In this document: positions 3,864 through 59,395 of the stretch, in pieces
Position numbering within the stretch: position 1 is the stretch's first letter
How the letters are laid out: the number at the start of each line of letters is the position of its first letter
Assembly (NCBI GenBank): GCA_025677605.1
Contig: GCA_025677605.1_4110.1
Direction: 5' to 3' (one strand)
Length of the DNA: 64,000 nucleotides
DNA from: a phage
Position numbers and translations under genes: made by a program
Notes under the pieces: model-generated
What the model was told of the DNA's origin: nothing
The model's database searches: none
What the model saw: the letters and a program-made list of their open reading frames with translations, nothing else

Positions 3864-4493
3864 TTATACCCCTGCTCGAATAAGAGCACCGTACCATGTA
3901 ATACCACCATCATAGGTTTCTAGGGAAATTATATCTTTTTGGGATTGTTCATATGAAAGAAGAACTTGACGATTGAATGACCATTTCACATTAGAACTCC
4001 AGCTTACAAGATTTGAACCTGTGCCTTGTTCTATGATAACAGTGCAATCATATACTTGAGTTTTAGCATTAGGAAGGATATTAATTGTAGTGTTTGGTTT
4101 GTTTAGAGTTAAATTAAAAACTTTATTACCAGTACTGGTATCTATATCGTAACTATCAGCTTGTGGTAATACTGTCACAGTACTGTTGGAGCTATCATAT
4201 AATGTAACCCATTCAGTACTGTTTGTGTCATTTGTTGTGCGTGCTTGTATTTTAACACCGTTATTAGTCTCTGTCATCCCAGCCCACGCAGCAATCTGTA
4301 ACGATTGGTTGCTATCTGTTCCTAGTGTTGTAATCACTGAATTACTTAAATGATTATCTGCACCAGAAATTTCGTGTGTTCTGATAATATTAAAAGACGA
4401 TGTATCAAATGTTAATATTGGTTTTTTAAATTCAGCTTTCGAGAATTTAACAACACCAGTAACTTCCATTGTGGTGTAAAAGGAAATAGCCAT
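3864..4493 (-). CDS. hypothetical structural (fibre-like) protein
   Basis: 209 aa, Ser/Thr/Asn-rich beta-like composition typical of fibre or baseplate proteins; tightly coupled to downstream large gene. Confidence 0.45.
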   Translation of the reverse strand: MAISFYTTMEVTGVVKFSKAEFKKPILTFDTSSFNIIRTHEISGADNHLSNSVITTLGTDSNQSLQIAAWAGMTETNNGVKIQARTTNDTNSTEWVTLYDSSNSTVTVLPQADSYDIDTSTGNKVFNLTLNKPNTTINILPNAKTQVYDCTVIIEQGTGSNLVSWSSNVKWSFNRQVLLSYEQSQKDIISLETYDGGITWYGALIRAGV

Positions 4494-4577
4494 AATCCAT
4501 CCTTAAATTAGTTATTATTGGGTATTTATTGGTCTAAGTGGATTTTTTAGACCCATTTAGACCAATATTCAATAATA

Positions 4578-5819
4578 CTATTTCTTACCGTACCACTGCA
4601 TTTCTCGAATATCGATTAGAACTTTTGCAGCTAGTTGAATGTTTGGTTTCTTTGGTAGAACTGACTTAGGATACACCACATTGCGGATATAGTCAACCTT
4701 TTCATTGAAATAATCCATGACTTCTTCATACTTCCATTTACCGTTGCGGATATCCATTAGCATATCAGCATCAGGACGTTTAACAAGGATAATACCGCTT
4801 TGTAATGCTTCTTCGGCACTATTTAGCAGCCTGATCGTATGCATAGCATGTTTTAGATCGAAGCCGTGCTGTGATTCCATAAGAGCACGTTTAGCATTAC
4901 GATTCTCTTTCCATTTGTGATAACTTTTACGGTTCTCACTGTTCTCACTGTATTCTTTTTCATTGAATTTGACAATGAGTTCAGGTCGTACTTTCAATTC
5001 TTCAGTACTGCGTTCTTTGTTGAAATAACGTAAAGAACCATCAGCGTTAATTGTACTTTCATTAGGATTGATAATAACACCAAAGATATTTTCACCGTAA
5101 TGAATTAATTCGTACCCATTGTTATAATCCAATAAGTTGAAATCACGGTCTAGTACTTTATCAGTACTGTAATTATGTACTAAACGTACAAAATGATACT
5201 GTTTCAACGGATGAGTTGAAACTAACTGCAATGAAGTATCACGCATGTATTTTTCAAAATCTATTTTCTTAGCATTAAATGGATGTAGTTTAGAAGTATC
5301 TAAACGTTCTACCAAATAGTGTGGGAAGTTTTCATACATCCATGCTAAAGTTTCATCTACTGGAAAATCTTCTAAGATTTCATTTAGACGTTTTTCAGCA
5401 ATACGCTCTTTATCCATCCACCCGTGGTGATTGGACATACGCTTAACCTGATTATATGCATAACCGGTATAAGAGAATGCAATCTTAGAACTAAGTAATT
5501 GTTGATTGAATGTACGTAGATAATCATAGATTTCAGTACTTTCTACGATGTGTTCAGGATCAACCCATAGTGATTCAAGGATATTTGGGTTAGCCTCTGT
5601 GTATAGTCTTAAGTACTGATTTAGTTCATAGAATTTAGTATCTTCTTCTCTTGAATCAGAAACTTCTTTTACATTATAAAAAGGTGTCAGAATGAACTCT
5701 TTGTTAGCAAGAAAAATACCACGATAATCCGTATCACTTTCAGGTGTACTGGTTCCATACGCTTGTGAACCTGCTAAGTGCTTCACAATTGTTTGTTCAA
5801 GAAATTTGTTATTATTCAT
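4578..5819 (-). CDS. Pol-beta-superfamily nucleotidyltransferase domain protein
   Basis: N-terminal GSQAYGTSTPESDTDYRGIF fits the GS-x(9-13)-DxD nucleotidyltransferase signature; 413 aa. Confidence 0.55.
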   Translation of the reverse strand: MNNNKFLEQTIVKHLAGSQAYGTSTPESDTDYRGIFLANKEFILTPFYNVKEVSDSREEDTKFYELNQYLRLYTEANPNILESLWVDPEHIVESTEIYDYLRTFNQQLLSSKIAFSYTGYAYNQVKRMSNHHGWMDKERIAEKRLNEILEDFPVDETLAWMYENFPHYLVERLDTSKLHPFNAKKIDFEKYMRDTSLQLVSTHPLKQYHFVRLVHNYSTDKVLDRDFNLLDYNNGYELIHYGENIFGVIINPNESTINADGSLRYFNKERSTEELKVRPELIVKFNEKEYSENSENRKSYHKWKENRNAKRALMESQHGFDLKHAMHTIRLLNSAEEALQSGIILVKRPDADMLMDIRNGKWKYEEVMDYFNEKVDYIRNVVYPKSVLPKKPNIQLAAKVLIDIREMQWYGKK

Positions 5820-6217
5820 AGATGTAATGTTAGCTCCTTAAGAAACCCATTATAGTACTTCATGAAATCTTTATGAAGAACTTTGTATTCTGATAAACTA
5901 AAACCTAGATTGATTATAGTATCTTCTTGAAAGAACTTTTCTTCTTCGGATAAATCCAGAGAAATAGATTGTTTGCCACCATTTAATATTTTAGTAAAGT
6001 GTAAACCATCATTATTGATTTCAACGTACATGAAGTTATTTTCACGGTCACGAGGGCAAACAATATTAATGGAACTTTCACCAGTATCATCGTATTCGAA
6101 TGATATTACATCATACTCCCCGATTCCATAAAATTGTTTATCACTCTTGTAACCACTATATACTTTTTTATACGAATCCATCTGTCTTATGGTGCTATAC
6201 ACATCATCAAGATCCAT
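5816..6217 (-). CDS. hypothetical protein
   Basis: 133 aa ORF, 4-nt overlap with downstream gene. Confidence 0.5.
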   Translation of the reverse strand: MDLDDVYSTIRQMDSYKKVYSGYKSDKQFYGIGEYDVISFEYDDTGESSINIVCPRDRENNFMYVEINNDGLHFTKILNGGKQSISLDLSEEEKFFQEDTIINLGFSLSEYKVLHKDFMKYYNGFLKELTLHL

Positions 6218-56327: not shown

Positions 56328-56942
56328 TTAAATTTTACTTATTGTTTCTGTTATCAAACCATTATCTAAATCATATTGTAAAATATCTATTCTACGCTTT
56401 ATTCCATTAATAACTCTTAAATCGACAACAGAACTGTATTTTTCTATGATTTCATATAGATATTTTATTTTCTCCCTTTGCCATACTTGATGAGCTTCTT
56501 CAGGTGTGTGAAATAACCCAAAGTTTCGTATTTGTTTTCCAAATTTACATATTGCAGGTCTATATTTTTTGGAACACCTATCATCATTGAAATACGACAC
56601 ACCAATATAATTATTACCTCTATTTCCGTCAATTATACAACTGTTAATTAAACCAGGTATAAAGGCACACGTTTCAGGTGAGTAAATATCTTTATCTCCC
56701 CCAATTATATCTTTATCTAATTGATATCCCTCAATATAGTGAAGTTTAAACCATTTTTTGAAATTGGAATAATATTTCCATTCATCACAAACTGTTGTGT
56801 TTATGTATGATAAATTCTTATCAGTTCTTTTAAGACTATAGCAACGCCTAATTATTCCAGTCCATTTATCATATATATGATAATCCAAACTTGATGGTAT
56901 GGAGTCGCCAGGAATGTCATTAATACCAAAATTATATATCAC
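56328..56942 (-). CDS. hypothetical Cys-rich protein
   Basis: 204 aa ORF. Confidence 0.5.
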   Translation of the reverse strand: MIYNFGINDIPGDSIPSSLDYHIYDKWTGIIRRCYSLKRTDKNLSYINTTVCDEWKYYSNFKKWFKLHYIEGYQLDKDIIGGDKDIYSPETCAFIPGLINSCIIDGNRGNNYIGVSYFNDDRCSKKYRPAICKFGKQIRNFGLFHTPEEAHQVWQREKIKYLYEIIEKYSSVVDLRVINGIKRRIDILQYDLDNGLITETISKI

Positions 56943-56956
56943 TGATTTTCCTTTAA

Positions 56957-57499
56957 TTATAGACAGTTCTGTAAGATATTATCGAACAGTTTACTGTCCA
57001 GGTTGTACTCATATAAAAATTTAAATCTAGAACCGTACTTCATCATTATATTGAATGCTTCATCTTCTGCTAATACATAGAAGTTGAAGTCATCTACTGT
57101 ACCATTGAACCCAATAAAATCCATAATTTCAATAGTAACATCATGTCCTTGATGGAAGTACTTCACTGACAAAGGAAGTCCAAGAACACTATATTGTCTG
57201 GATTCCCCTTCTAATTTCCCATCTACAACATGGAATTTCCTTGATACTGTATTAGAATTATATCGCTCTTCTCCGTAATGTCCATAGCGAACAGAAAAAA
57301 TTACTGGGTTTTTTGTAGGTCTACAAGTGATTTTTGCTAGTTCTACACCTCCCATGTACTCAACAATATGATTGATAGTTCCTTTTTCTTTTACTATTTT
57401 ATATCCATCAAATGAATCTCTATCAAATTCTTCTAGTACTTCAAATTCTTTTGATTTATAAATGATCTCTGTTGTTTTGTTCTTTGAAAATACAGGCAT
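56957..57499 (-). CDS. hypothetical protein
   Basis: 180 aa ORF. Confidence 0.5.
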   Translation of the reverse strand: MPVFSKNKTTEIIYKSKEFEVLEEFDRDSFDGYKIVKEKGTINHIVEYMGGVELAKITCRPTKNPVIFSVRYGHYGEERYNSNTVSRKFHVVDGKLEGESRQYSVLGLPLSVKYFHQGHDVTIEIMDFIGFNGTVDDFNFYVLAEDEAFNIMMKYGSRFKFLYEYNLDSKLFDNILQNCL

Positions 57500-58192
57500 T
57501 ATTATTCCTTTTTAGGAAACATCAAATAATGTACTCGATGTTGATTTCGTTTGCACTCAATCAACATCAGTAGAATTAATTCATCGCTACGCTCTGAATA
57601 ATTCTAATAGTACTAAATGGTTTTAATTAATATTGACGAGGTTTGGAAGAGCATATTTCATCCCCCCACTGGGGGAAAGAATTAAAATTTGACGCTGGTG
57701 GTCTTCACATATTTCATATCACGAATTCTCTTAACGAGGCGAAAGCGGGTTGCTCTGTTTCTCTCTATCGCGGTTCTTGTAGCAACGGTCGTCGGTCTTA
57801 AACATCCCGACACATAATACGAGTACCATATGAACAGTACTGGTATTTGATTTCACCAAATTTTGGACGCAACTATCTTGTACAAATAGTTGACCGCAAT
57901 TTCTAATGAAATCTCCCTTAGCAAATCTGGTAAGGTGCGATCCTTATATGTCTATCTAGGAACTCTCTGTGTGCTTATCGGAGTTCTTTATACAGCCGCA
58001 TTGCCGTGAGGGGTTCATAATATGCCCACATCTGACGGGTTTCATCTGCTGTTCGTACTGAAAGGACTACTCATCTACCCTCTACATTTTCGAGTGGATT
58101 AGGCTCTTAATCATTTCCATATGGAACCTTTCAGGATTAAAAAAAAAGAGTGACAAAGATATATTGCCACTCATCATTATATCACCAAGAAT
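57500..58192. other. ORF-free, GC-richer intergenic region; candidate structured non-coding RNA or decayed element
   Basis: no ORF of 60 aa or more in any frame; visibly more G+C than flanking DNA; G/C hairpin cccccc-act-ggggg at about 57662-57675. Confidence 0.4.
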
Positions 58193-59032
58193 TTATTTGT
58201 CCTGGGTATTTTCAGTAAATTTCTTCCACAGTAGTAATGTATTTTGACGAATTATTTCAATATGTCTTGAACTAAATTGTCTTTCATTATCGTCCCATAG
58301 TGCATCTGAATTCAAAAATGCCAGAAATACAAATGCAACATCTTCTCGTGGGACATTGAATACTGTATTGTTCGTACATACACGATCCATTGGTACAGGC
58401 ATACCACCAGTACGATCACTGTACTGTAAGTCACGTGCCACCAGATTTACATCTTTGACGAATTTATGATTGATATAAGGCTTCAGAACGTTAAGGAAGT
58501 CATTATATCCATTATTGTGGTCAATTTCAAACATTACATGTTCAGTATTGTCCGCGTCTTCACAGTCGTTATTATTGCTATTTTTGAAATCAAAAAACCT
58601 TTCACTCATTCTACTGGAGTTTGAAGATGAACAATTACGTATACCACCAGAACGGCGTTTAATATTTTCTAAATCTTCATCAGTACTGGAATAATAAGTA
58701 AGATCATATGAATCATTACCAATCATAATACGCTTAGTATAATGGTTATAAACTATAAAGTCATAATCTTTAATACCAAGTAACATGAACTGGAATACTA
58801 ATTCATCCGGTACATCAACGAGTGCATGTTCAAAGTCTTCATATCTGGAACGGAATACAACATCCTTAAATCCACGGTAGATAATAAAATTACCAAAGTC
58901 GAAATAATTTTCATGCATATGGACATTTTCATTTCTGATGTATTCAGACGAAGCTGGTGCAACACGGTCATCTTCTGATGCGTAATGATCGGTTTCTTTA
59001 ACATTAAAGTTGATAATAAAATTTAATTTCAT
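58193..59032 (-). CDS. hypothetical protein
   Basis: 279 aa ORF. Confidence 0.5.
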   Translation of the reverse strand: MKLNFIINFNVKETDHYASEDDRVAPASSEYIRNENVHMHENYFDFGNFIIYRGFKDVVFRSRYEDFEHALVDVPDELVFQFMLLGIKDYDFIVYNHYTKRIMIGNDSYDLTYYSSTDEDLENIKRRSGGIRNCSSSNSSRMSERFFDFKNSNNNDCEDADNTEHVMFEIDHNNGYNDFLNVLKPYINHKFVKDVNLVARDLQYSDRTGGMPVPMDRVCTNNTVFNVPREDVAFVFLAFLNSDALWDDNERQFSSRHIEIIRQNTLLLWKKFTENTQDK

Positions 59033-59046
59033 AGTGCCTCATAGAC

Positions 59047-59078
59047 AAAAAGGCCGAGAATATTCCCGACCTTTTTTT
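59047..59078. terminator. imperfect hairpin flanked by A-run and T-run
   Basis: ggccgagaat/attcccgacc stem with two mismatches, A4 upstream and T7 downstream. Confidence 0.4.
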
Positions 59079-59086
59079 ATTATGTA

Positions 59087-59395
59087 TTAGTTTGAGGTTC
59101 CCCAGCAGTAGACTGGTTTCAAATTCTCAAGAGGATTAACTTCAGGTTTCAGTACTGTAACGCGAACTTCATAAGTACTTCCATCTGCACGAGTCATTGT
59201 TTCATAATGAATACTTTCAATGAACGTTTCATATTCTTCTTGTGAACGAGCACGAACTGCTGAAGAGTATTTCTTCTTAGTATCCGATTTTAAGGTAACA
59301 CTTACGAGTTCTGCTTCTTCGCCATTTTCAAGCTTGTTGAAATCAAACTCTGGTACACCTTCAAACATATCAAATTTCATTCCGTTGTCTTCCAT
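59087..59395 (-). CDS. hypothetical protein
   Basis: 102 aa ORF. Confidence 0.5.
   Translation of the reverse strand: MEDNGMKFDMFEGVPEFDFNKLENGEEAELVSVTLKSDTKKKYSSAVRARSQEEYETFIESIHYETMTRADGSTYEVRVTVLKPEVNPLENLKPVYCWGTSN

Follow-up and report, generated by a model that had tools for sequence, protein, structure and literature searches.

A predicted large non-coding RNA with several pseudoknots in the longest ORF-free gap of a jumbo-phage sequence, with paralogs in related phages and homologs in bacterial integrative elements

A stretch of 64,000 nt (hereafter, the window) from the phage contig GCA_025677605.1_4110.1 (NCBI GenBank assembly GCA_025677605.1) contains, at positions 57500-58192, a gap without open reading frames (ORFs). 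By comparison of sequences we show that this gap holds a predicted, independently transcribed gene for a non-coding RNA of ~550 nt, encoded on the minus strand with its core at 58134-57634. The product is predicted to adopt a strand-specific, RNA-level structure with multiple pseudoknots that is under strong purifying selection. The RNA represents what seems to be a previously undescribed family, and the copy in the window is apparently one of four ancient paralogs in Escherichia phage A4. A full-text literature search found no description of the family, although one 2026 preprint on language-model mining of non-coding elements may hold one. We rate it as a new RNA class; should it prove to be the transcript of a replication origin, it would rather count as a new version of something already known.

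The gap measures 693 bp and is the longest stretch of the window without an ORF of at least 60 aa, the runner-up being 234 bp. In this respect the first-pass annotation of the window, which had described it as by far the largest gap, was borne out. The same annotation had called the gap G+C-rich. The excess is real, but over the whole gap it is only modest (38.5% vs. a window mean of 34.8%; 89th percentile among 693-nt tiles), while it is clear for the conserved core at 57623-58112 (42.0%; 98.5th percentile). The strong G/C hairpin and the inverted repeats that it had mentioned could also be located: the hairpin, CCCCCC-ACT-GGGGG, lies at 57662-57675 and is kept across the RNA family, and further inverted repeats are found in the gap, for example at 57571-57606 and 57537-57568.

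The 2.2 kb surrounding the gap (56900-59100) are 99.8% identical, on the reverse complement, to Escherichia phage A4 (ON286972.1), a 355.5-kb jumbo phage of the genus Asteriusvirus and of the 121Q/RaK2 type. Megablast showed that the gap alone, without its flanking genes, is conserved in 121Q-like phages at 85-88% DNA identity. With blastn, 62 phage records matched the RNA gene, at 3-5 places per record, and the core is 65-74% identical in GAP32, CBB, Serratia BF, Yersinia fHe-Yen9-04, Salmonella Munch and Erwinia phages. The hosts include Escherichia, Salmonella, Erwinia, Yersinia, Serratia, Cronobacter, Pectobacterium, Klebsiella and Xanthomonas, and among the matches listed all are jumbo phages of ~310-386 kb. 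The full A4 record contains exactly four copies of the RNA, all on the same strand, each within a rare large intergenic gap and mutually 62-68% identical: c1, which is the window copy (record 65089-65650), c4 (125696-126310), c2 (205561-206122) and c3 (320954-321452). No second copy was found within the 64-kb window by blastn or with the RNA profile. The position of c1, beside a hypothetical gene and genes for an N6-adenine methyltransferase and a cytidylyltransferase, is conserved in GAP32, fHe-Yen9-04, XbC2 and G17. Inspection of the alignment suggests that paralog subtypes recur across genera, as judged by three markers (whether there is a terminator hairpin on the 5′ side, whether a terminator is inserted on the 3′ side, and where a peripheral module sits; all described below), which would mean that the duplication is old and that every copy has been retained. 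Copies c1, c3 and c4 share the strand of their downstream gene; c2, which adjoins a baseplate hub gene, is antiparallel to its neighbors and has no co-directional gene downstream. Hypothetical-protein coding sequences (CDSs) have been annotated over RNA copies in several GenBank records (fHe-Yen9-04, locus L012 1500-1981; A4_511, record 126001-126150; 121Q "416"), and these small CDSs are probably mis-annotations.

To describe the fold we used an alignment (A1) of 36 distinct RNA-sense sequences, consisting of the A4 paralogs and IMG/VR loci recovered by a motif scan. The first RNAalifold structure derived from it contained 103 pairs, canonical in 91.6% of the alignment cells compared with 35-45% when the partners were slid; 56 pairs were changed on both sides (26-31 when slid), and none of 500 shuffles was as good. 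An all-against-all column scan of 54 sequences then revealed extra stacked helices beyond the nested fold that are perfectly canonical and covary. The revised model comprises 99 pairs in 20 helices, four of which are pseudoknot helices that are each 100% canonical. In this model 93.7% of 3487 pair cells are canonical (40-43% in slid controls), both-side changes occur in 66 of the 99 pairs (25-32) and in 594 cells (64-134), and the covariation score is 0.481 (0.06-0.10); on none of the five measures did any of 500 shuffles reach the observed value. We also assembled 57 sequences from metagenomes, IMG/VR and bacterial genomes that had played no part in deriving the structure, in which pairing was 90%. 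Of these, 35 stay below 85% identity to every sequence used in training; in them 89% of cells pair (~40% after shifting), with 99.3% canonical pairs in the pseudoknots (20-50% after shifting). The suggestion of the first-pass annotation that the gap encodes a structured RNA is thus strongly supported by a conserved fold, by covariation and by independent test sequences. Taken alone, the folding energy of the single sequence is unremarkable (z = -1.78 for the minus strand, -1.10 for the plus strand); the significance of the fold comes from conservation and covariation, not from thermodynamic stability. A long-range pairing of the 3′ CUCGUC with GAC/GAG (A1 columns 319-322 and 357-359), proposed by RNAalifold, showed no covariation and was dropped.

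The model, all on the minus strand, can be divided into domains. In the 5′ domain (58055-58134), the long-range helix H1 (58134-58127 : 58065-58058) encloses a variable hairpin, H2, and a second hairpin, H3, whose loop GAAAAUGUAG is conserved; all eight H1 pairs and seven of the eight H3 pairs show changes on both sides. The first pseudoknot helix, PKa, pairs 58070-58068 with 58057-58055, and its middle pair is UA in 14 sequences, AU in 12 and CG in 10. The central domain (57931-58052) is built of H5 (58052-58048 : 57996-57992), H6 (58038-58032 : 58008-58004) and the hairpins H9 (57986-57960) and H12 (57946-57931), with covariation in three of five H5 pairs and in all five of H9. It contains the invariant blocks GAAACCCGU, CACGGCAAUGCGGC and GAUAGACAUAU, and PKb (58001-57999 : 57950-57948), in which GC (24) alternates with AU (12) and UA (33) with CG (3). 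There follows (57849-57930) the invariant UAAGGGAG and then a variable arm closed by H13 (57913-57910 : 57852-57849), all four pairs of which covary. In the c1 copy this arm bears a peripheral module, GUACAAGAUAGUUGCGUCCAAAAUU, at about 57905-57855 of the window. The module, GUACAAUAUAGAUCCGUCyAAAAUU in its family form, occupies alternative sites in different paralogs, at A1 columns ~395-425 or 565-595 (inside H22), and is present at both sites, in two copies, in A4 c4 and its 121Q ortholog. Such a choice between two positions is typical of tertiary-contact elements in complex RNAs. The 3′ core domain (57715-57845) consists of the long hairpin H15 (57845-57818), H16, H19 (57772-57768 : 57724-57720), H20 (57765-57741) and H22, and is the best-conserved part of the family. 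Here PKc (57832-57828 : 57719-57715) joins the apical loop of H15 to a downstream strand, with all five pairs covarying, and PKd (57786-57782 : 57753-57749) changes from GUUGC:GCAAC to GUCAU:AUGAC and other variants, with CG in 24 and UA in 11. The series GACCGU...AGAAAC...ACCCGCUU within this domain is invariant and is common to the phage members, the bacterial members and the divergent metagenomic subfamily (type B) described below.

The strand assignment relies on the kinds of pairs observed, as RNAalifold energies are similar for the two strands. When the 36-sequence alignment is read as minus strand, the predicted pairs include 286 G-U as opposed to 78 A-C combinations, and some of them are nearly always G-U (35, 29 and 27 of the 36 sequences). 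Because these G-U pairs would be A-C mismatches on the plus strand, the RNA is assigned to the minus strand. A consensus scan of the gap identified a putative sigma-70-type promoter for it at 58176-58203, minus strand, with an extended -10 element (TGATATAAT, 58184-58176) and a -35-like hexamer ~16-17 nt upstream, that is, AGGACA-16-TATAAT preceded by TG. A minus-strand promoter of this kind, with a -35-like TGAAAC, a 17-nt spacer and a -10 box, precedes all 104 distinct family members for which upstream sequence was available. The -10 box is mostly the extended TGnTATAAT, and TATACT in bacterial copies; the sequence surrounding the promoter boxes is otherwise unconserved among members. In bacterial copies (L097, L101, L105, L108, L109) a perfect palindrome, CTATAAATATC-GGTA-GATATTTATAG, is also conserved ~40 nt upstream of the -10 box, and might serve as an operator, as a terminator or as a site of recombination.

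The window copy has a further element close to its promoter. A terminator scan detected an intrinsic-terminator-like hairpin followed by a U-run at 58139-58172, minus strand, after the upstream gene (ORF 58193-59032). It is specific to the c1-type paralog and is placed between the -10 box and the core of the RNA. The same arrangement is found in the GAP32, G17 and Yen9-04 orthologs, and in GAP32 and G17 it is annotated as a terminator. Given this placement, an RNA that begins at about 58169 would have its 5′ end within the 5′ arm of the hairpin, which may allow transcripts of the RNA to escape termination while those of the upstream gene stop.

We found neither a protein-coding gene nor a known RNA that could account for the gap. 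ARAGORN predicted no transfer RNA or transfer-messenger RNA (tmRNA) in the whole window, and there were no matches in the window at the gathering score to the 4227 covariance models of Rfam 15, which include those for RNase P, tmRNA, 6S, group I and II introns, ROOL, GOLLD, OLE, HEARO, raiA and RNAI. A permissive Rfam scan of the gap (E up to 10) returned unrelated weak matches only (small nucleolar RNA and microRNA families, and the terminator-like sRNA71), and 11 divergent family members gave no match inside the RNA at E up to 1. An intact or decayed coding gene was rejected, as each of the six frames contains 9-18 stops and the longest ORF has 52 aa. Six-frame translations gave no credible match to Pfam or PHROG, no BLASTX search of a full protein database having been run, and so the frameshifted ordinary gene that the first-pass annotation had allowed for was not found within the reach of those scans. 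Nor does an intact ORF stand at this position in GAP32, fHe-Yen9-04, XbC2 or G17, where there are only small, probably spurious CDSs. The other suggestion of that annotation, a recently acquired or decayed element, is not supported, given the stops in all frames, the synteny in distant genera and DNA conservation above that of the flanking genes.

T4-like phages carry group I introns and homing endonucleases, a gene related to a fragment of an HNH endonuclease lies nearby (56331-56942), and the central domain has a pseudoknot topology resembling P3/P7, though this topology is generic. A self-splicing group I or II intron, the remnant of one, or a decayed protein gene might thus be considered. 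However, we regard this as the most improbable of all the explanations, as the flanking ORFs are complete and each aligns full-length with a different PHROG family (1-262/263 and 14-189/191), the RNA is predicted to have a promoter of its own and is intergenic in bacteria, and the six frames match no protein family. The Intron_gpI model remains unmatched by the window copy even at E up to 10, the 11 divergent members likewise give no Rfam intron match, and the Intron_gpII and group-II-D1D4 models are also unmatched.

The 3′ tail (57634-57714, minus strand) consists of blocks conserved in all members. It includes a small hairpin at about 57703-57691 that ends in CAGCGUCAA, a hairpin formed by a C/U-run and a run of six G (57679-57658) with the invariant GGGGGGAUGAAA, which is the G/C hairpin mentioned above, and the motif CAAACCUCGUCAA at 57646-57634 (family form CAAAyCyCGUCAR). 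Opposite the invariant G-run the C-rich strand shows only C/U changes, so that G-U pairing is preserved in the RNA. In 50 of 101 copies, the window copy not being one of them, a hairpin and a run of at least five U are inserted upstream of the G-run. A small ORF after the G-run (AUGAAA...) was considered and discarded, since inspection of the alignment showed that its frame is not conserved among copies. Further downstream (57571-57606, minus strand) there is a hairpin, UAGAAUUAUUCA-GAGCGUAGCGA-UGAAUUAAUUCUA, with a CGUAG-containing loop. In 43 of 54 copies, bacterial ones included, the core is followed after 25-100 nt by a hairpin whose loop reads RAACGWAGUGA or CGWAG and whose stem is at least 4 bp long, although the search pattern was permissive and a few of the 43 may be chance matches. 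The stem sequence differs between copies, and the hairpin at 57571-57606 may mark where a longer transcript ends, or may be an element in its own right.

Close to the 3′ end an invariant G6 run gives way to AT-rich DNA and a conserved hairpin, as might also be expected if the RNA served as an RNA-primed replication origin, in which a transcript of the host polymerase would form a persistent RNA-DNA hybrid near its 3′ end, at the G6 run, and prime DNA synthesis. A jumbo phage would then need several such origins and an excised integrative element one, and copy number does appear to scale with replicon size (3-5 copies in genomes of ~350 kb and one in each bacterial-island locus examined). Across genera every paralog is found at a syntenic site of its own, and the four A4 copies are co-oriented, even c2. 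The size of the RNA and its sigma-70 promoter resemble those of ColE1 RNA II, no dedicated protein partner was found, and in Serratia fonticola the RNA is adjoined by ParB/RepB-like partition genes and a serine recombinase gene. GC skew rises slightly across the four A4 copies, but the shifts (0.036-0.087) are within the random range (median 0.037, 90th percentile 0.085). Moreover, four pseudoknots and unpaired nucleotides that are invariant over large distances exceed the known needs of a primer RNA, about half of the copies have an intrinsic-terminator-like hairpin and U-run upstream of the G-run, most bacterial copies lie between an integrase and a repressor gene and not beside replication genes, and there is no similarity to ColE1 RNAI or any other Rfam family. 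On balance we think an origin possible, though less likely than not, and the main rival of the reading that we favor below. Were it true, the RNA loci would be the still-unmapped replication origins of this phage group.

The terminator-like element near the 3′ end of about half of the copies, together with the shared strand of c1, c3 and c4 and their downstream genes, would also suit a cis-regulatory leader, in the window a giant riboswitch or attenuator of the downstream ORF 56957-57499. We consider this very unlikely, because at c2 and the bacterial copies the following gene presents its 3′ end to the RNA, or no gene runs in the same direction, the genes downstream of the paralogs are mutually unrelated, the window copy lacks the terminator insertion, and 550 nt with four pseudoknots are far beyond known leaders.

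The family is not restricted to phages. We scanned bacteria at one genome for each species and then searched locally with a profile, and so detected full-length homologs with E-values of 1e-83 to 1e-93. One is in the complete chromosome of Serratia fonticola GTA-SR07; others are on contigs assigned to Enterobacter chinensis, Silvania hatchlandensis, Serratia sp. and Enterobacteriaceae bacterium RIT714, and on contigs of metagenome-assembled genomes labeled Buttiauxella, uncultured Enterobacteriaceae bacterium and "Clostridium" (a 2.8-kb contig). The usual layout is an integrase gene, which encodes either a large serine recombinase or a tyrosine integrase, then the RNA, then a convergent gene for a CI-like repressor (helix-turn-helix and S24 peptidase). 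In S. fonticola the order is serine recombinase, two ParB/RepB-like genes and RNA, beside the chromosomal rof and tilS. Each bacterial-island locus examined has one copy. Among 5426 complete E. coli genomes, two carry the RNA. In strain LR-29-1 the surrounding non-coding gap measures 1.4 kb and belongs to an island of 10.8 kb between ffs and ybaA (L110 15850-26650), the cargo of which includes integrase remnants, IS3, a small serine recombinase, DUF4326 and the candidate defense system PDC-M45 (DuOB and DUF488). DUF4326 is also encoded by A4 (A4_492, 42% identity); when island ORFs were compared with A4 by tblastn, no other protein family was found in common, and this one occurs in one island. 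No plasmid matched the RNA. Among isolated phages, no temperate phage with a bacterial-type copy was found, and none with type B; only the same jumbo phages match.

The interval between integrase and repressor genes is a position typical of prophage "moron" genes, that is, of prophage accessory genes. This raises the possibility that the RNA is a conflict factor that acts in immunity, exclusion or anti-defense, for example as an antitoxin-like RNA or a decoy, which the element would express in the lysogen and which jumbo phages, with their multiple copies, would use to neutralize a system of the host or of a rival element. The RNA does reside in the lysogeny module of small integrative elements in which serine and tyrosine integrases are interchangeable, and the E. 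coli island bears both PDC-M45 and a small serine recombinase. Nevertheless, accessory anti-defense genes are usually patchy in distribution, while no relative lacks the RNA, of which each has 3-5 copies at conserved sites, and no toxin partner was identified. An old core function is also suggested by the location of type B beside the baseplate hub gene of other T4-like phages. We therefore hold a role in conflict to be rather improbable.

Type B was defined from a metagenome scan that yielded 76 more loci, 57 of them full-length. In seven of these loci the 5′ half is different, whereas the 3′ pseudoknotted core is nearly identical to that of the main family (GACCGUUGC...GAGAAACAGGGCAACCCGCUUCCG, AAAGGGAG, GGGGGGAUGGAAA). 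ACGAAG motifs take the place of CGUCA, the subfamily has its own TGTTATAAT promoter, and PKc covaries within it also. The contexts are those of T4-like phages: beside a T4-type baseplate hub gene and near the portal gene gp20, and near a gene for a Dda-like helicase.

Taken together, these observations lead us to favor, at slightly less than an even chance, the reading that the folded RNA works in trans, be it as a ribozyme, as the RNA component of a complex that includes a host protein, or by assembling itself into a scaffold in the way of ROOL and GOLLD. The host RNA polymerase would transcribe it from the sigma-70-type promoter, it would work as neither a message nor a cis-regulatory leader, and an active or binding site would be made up of those unpaired nucleotides in the 3′ pseudoknotted core that are invariant. 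Many unpaired nucleotides are indeed invariant across phage, bacterial and type B members, and the RNA has its own predicted promoter and, in about half of the copies, its own terminator-like element. Invariant unpaired nucleotides, four pseudoknots and a movable module are marks of RNAs whose three-dimensional shape is their function, which makes a trans-acting role the most likely one; it is further favored by the fact that the RNA can stand without a co-directional downstream gene, as in c2 and the bacterial elements. Since no phage or island protein co-occurs with the RNA, its partner would be encoded by the host, or it would work alone.

Several points weigh against a trans-acting folded RNA. 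Transcription, ends and abundance are inferred from sequence for every member, and no catalytic or binding motif was recognized in the RNA. The single-sequence folding energy of the gap is not exceptional (z about -1.8). A conserved 3′ tail downstream of a terminator-like insertion in about half of the copies is awkward if the terminated RNA is the functional product. Finally, 3-5 divergent paralogs at conserved, dispersed and co-oriented sites, vs. one copy per island locus, fit a cis-acting role on the chromosome at least as well.

A bolder version of the trans-acting reading, which we hold to be doubtful, is that of a new large catalytic or self-assembling RNA, in which the 3′ double-pseudoknot domain would provide the catalytic site or the surface for assembly. 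In a jumbo phage the four or five paralogs would then cooperate, for example in a hetero-oligomeric particle or as position-specific RNA-DNA organizers of the 350-kb chromosome, and the copy of an integrative element would exploit the same host pathway, or parasitize or interfere with phages. Large RNAs with several covarying pseudoknots and invariant unpaired nucleotides are almost always ribozymes, ribonucleoprotein cores or RNA-only assemblies, and new classes of them are rare. The retention of paralogs in every jumbo phage of the clade bears on how very large genomes are organized, replicated and protected, and the sharing of the RNA with small integrative elements that have defense cargo bears on how RNA-based functions move between phages and mobile elements. 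Because the RNA is present in cultivable E. coli phages (A4, 121Q, PBECO4, G17, phAPEC6) and in an E. coli chromosome, it is directly testable by genetics, RNA sequencing (RNA-seq) and cryo-electron microscopy (cryo-EM).

The surroundings of the RNA gene have some features of their own. The gap is flanked by two minus-strand ORFs, A4_404 (56957-57499) and A4_403 (58193-59032); the proteins adjoining it in the window have no Pfam domains, and the PHROGs that they match are of unknown function. Two genes downstream of the RNA, A4_405 (56331-56942, minus strand) matches only the C-terminal half of the HNH endonuclease phrog_953 (positions 198-402 of 420) and resembles a truncated homing-endonuclease-like gene, and two further genes annotated "putative HNH endonuclease" are located at most 4 kb upstream of the RNA. 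At 57537-57568 there is a 10-bp hairpin in the leader of the downstream gene, GATGTTGATT...AATCAACATC. In the equivalents in GAP32, fHe-Yen9-04 and XbC2 the stems differ (GGAACATC/GATGTTCC vs. GGAACTACC/GGTAGCTCC) and complementarity is kept, and since the stems differ between relatives yet stay complementary, this hairpin is selected as a structure. Elsewhere in the A4 record, outside the window, 2 kb at 4140-6137 have no annotated CDS, in a region with numerous tiny ORFs in tandem, and are not matched by the RNA profile.

With regard to known systems, the size of ColE1 RNA II and its sigma-70 promoter are the basis of its likeness to this RNA, which is likewise predicted to be a host-polymerase transcript of ~550 nt. 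The likeness extends to the T4 origins oriF and oriG, as in these systems too RNA structure matters, there is no dedicated initiator protein and a G-rich element lies near the priming site, and T4 uses several RNA-primed origins, which recalls the multiple copies of the RNA. However, there is no detectable homology, the predicted tertiary structure of the present RNA is far more elaborate and more conserved, and about half of its copies have a terminator-like insertion before the G-run. Antisense control like that of ColE1 RNA I was not apparent either, with no Rfam RNAI match and, in a promoter scan, no conserved plus-strand promoter in the 5′ region. The group I introns of T4-like phages are similar in size, in having a pseudoknotted core and in occurring in T4-related phages near homing-endonuclease-like genes; the present RNA differs in lacking exons or a splice-site context, in having its own predicted promoter between complete genes and in leaving Intron_gpI unmatched.

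Closer in phage relationship are the non-coding RNAs of PA5oct, the only ones reported for a related jumbo phage (PMC7318152). These four RNAs, ncRNA001-004, were defined by RNA-seq and are 236-619 nt long, and two of them make up 2-5% of phage reads (PMC7318152). They share with the present RNA, for which transcription is predicted, that they are long transcribed regions without ORFs; PA5oct, too, is a jumbo phage, and broadly from the same clade. The two that were compared by nhmmer, ncRNA002 and ncRNA004, are not homologous to the family, and no structure has been reported for either.

The nearest parallel for the favored reading is with ROOL and GOLLD, large ornate non-coding RNAs that are often encoded by phages or prophages and that were shown by cryo-EM to form RNA-only multimers (PMC12286853). 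Rfam models of these RNAs do not match ours, and there is no similarity in sequence or structure. The distribution also differs, as the present RNA is found in Enterobacteriaceae and their T4-like and jumbo phages, with 3-5 divergent paralogs per phage genome at conserved positions. The sequences of the present family reveal the large multi-pseudoknot fold with covariation that characterizes ornate RNAs. Like ROOL and GOLLD, the RNA is encoded by phages and integrated elements, appears to have its own promoter and no associated protein, exceeds 500 nt, and is predicted to consist of multiple domains with several pseudoknots and many invariant unpaired nucleotides.

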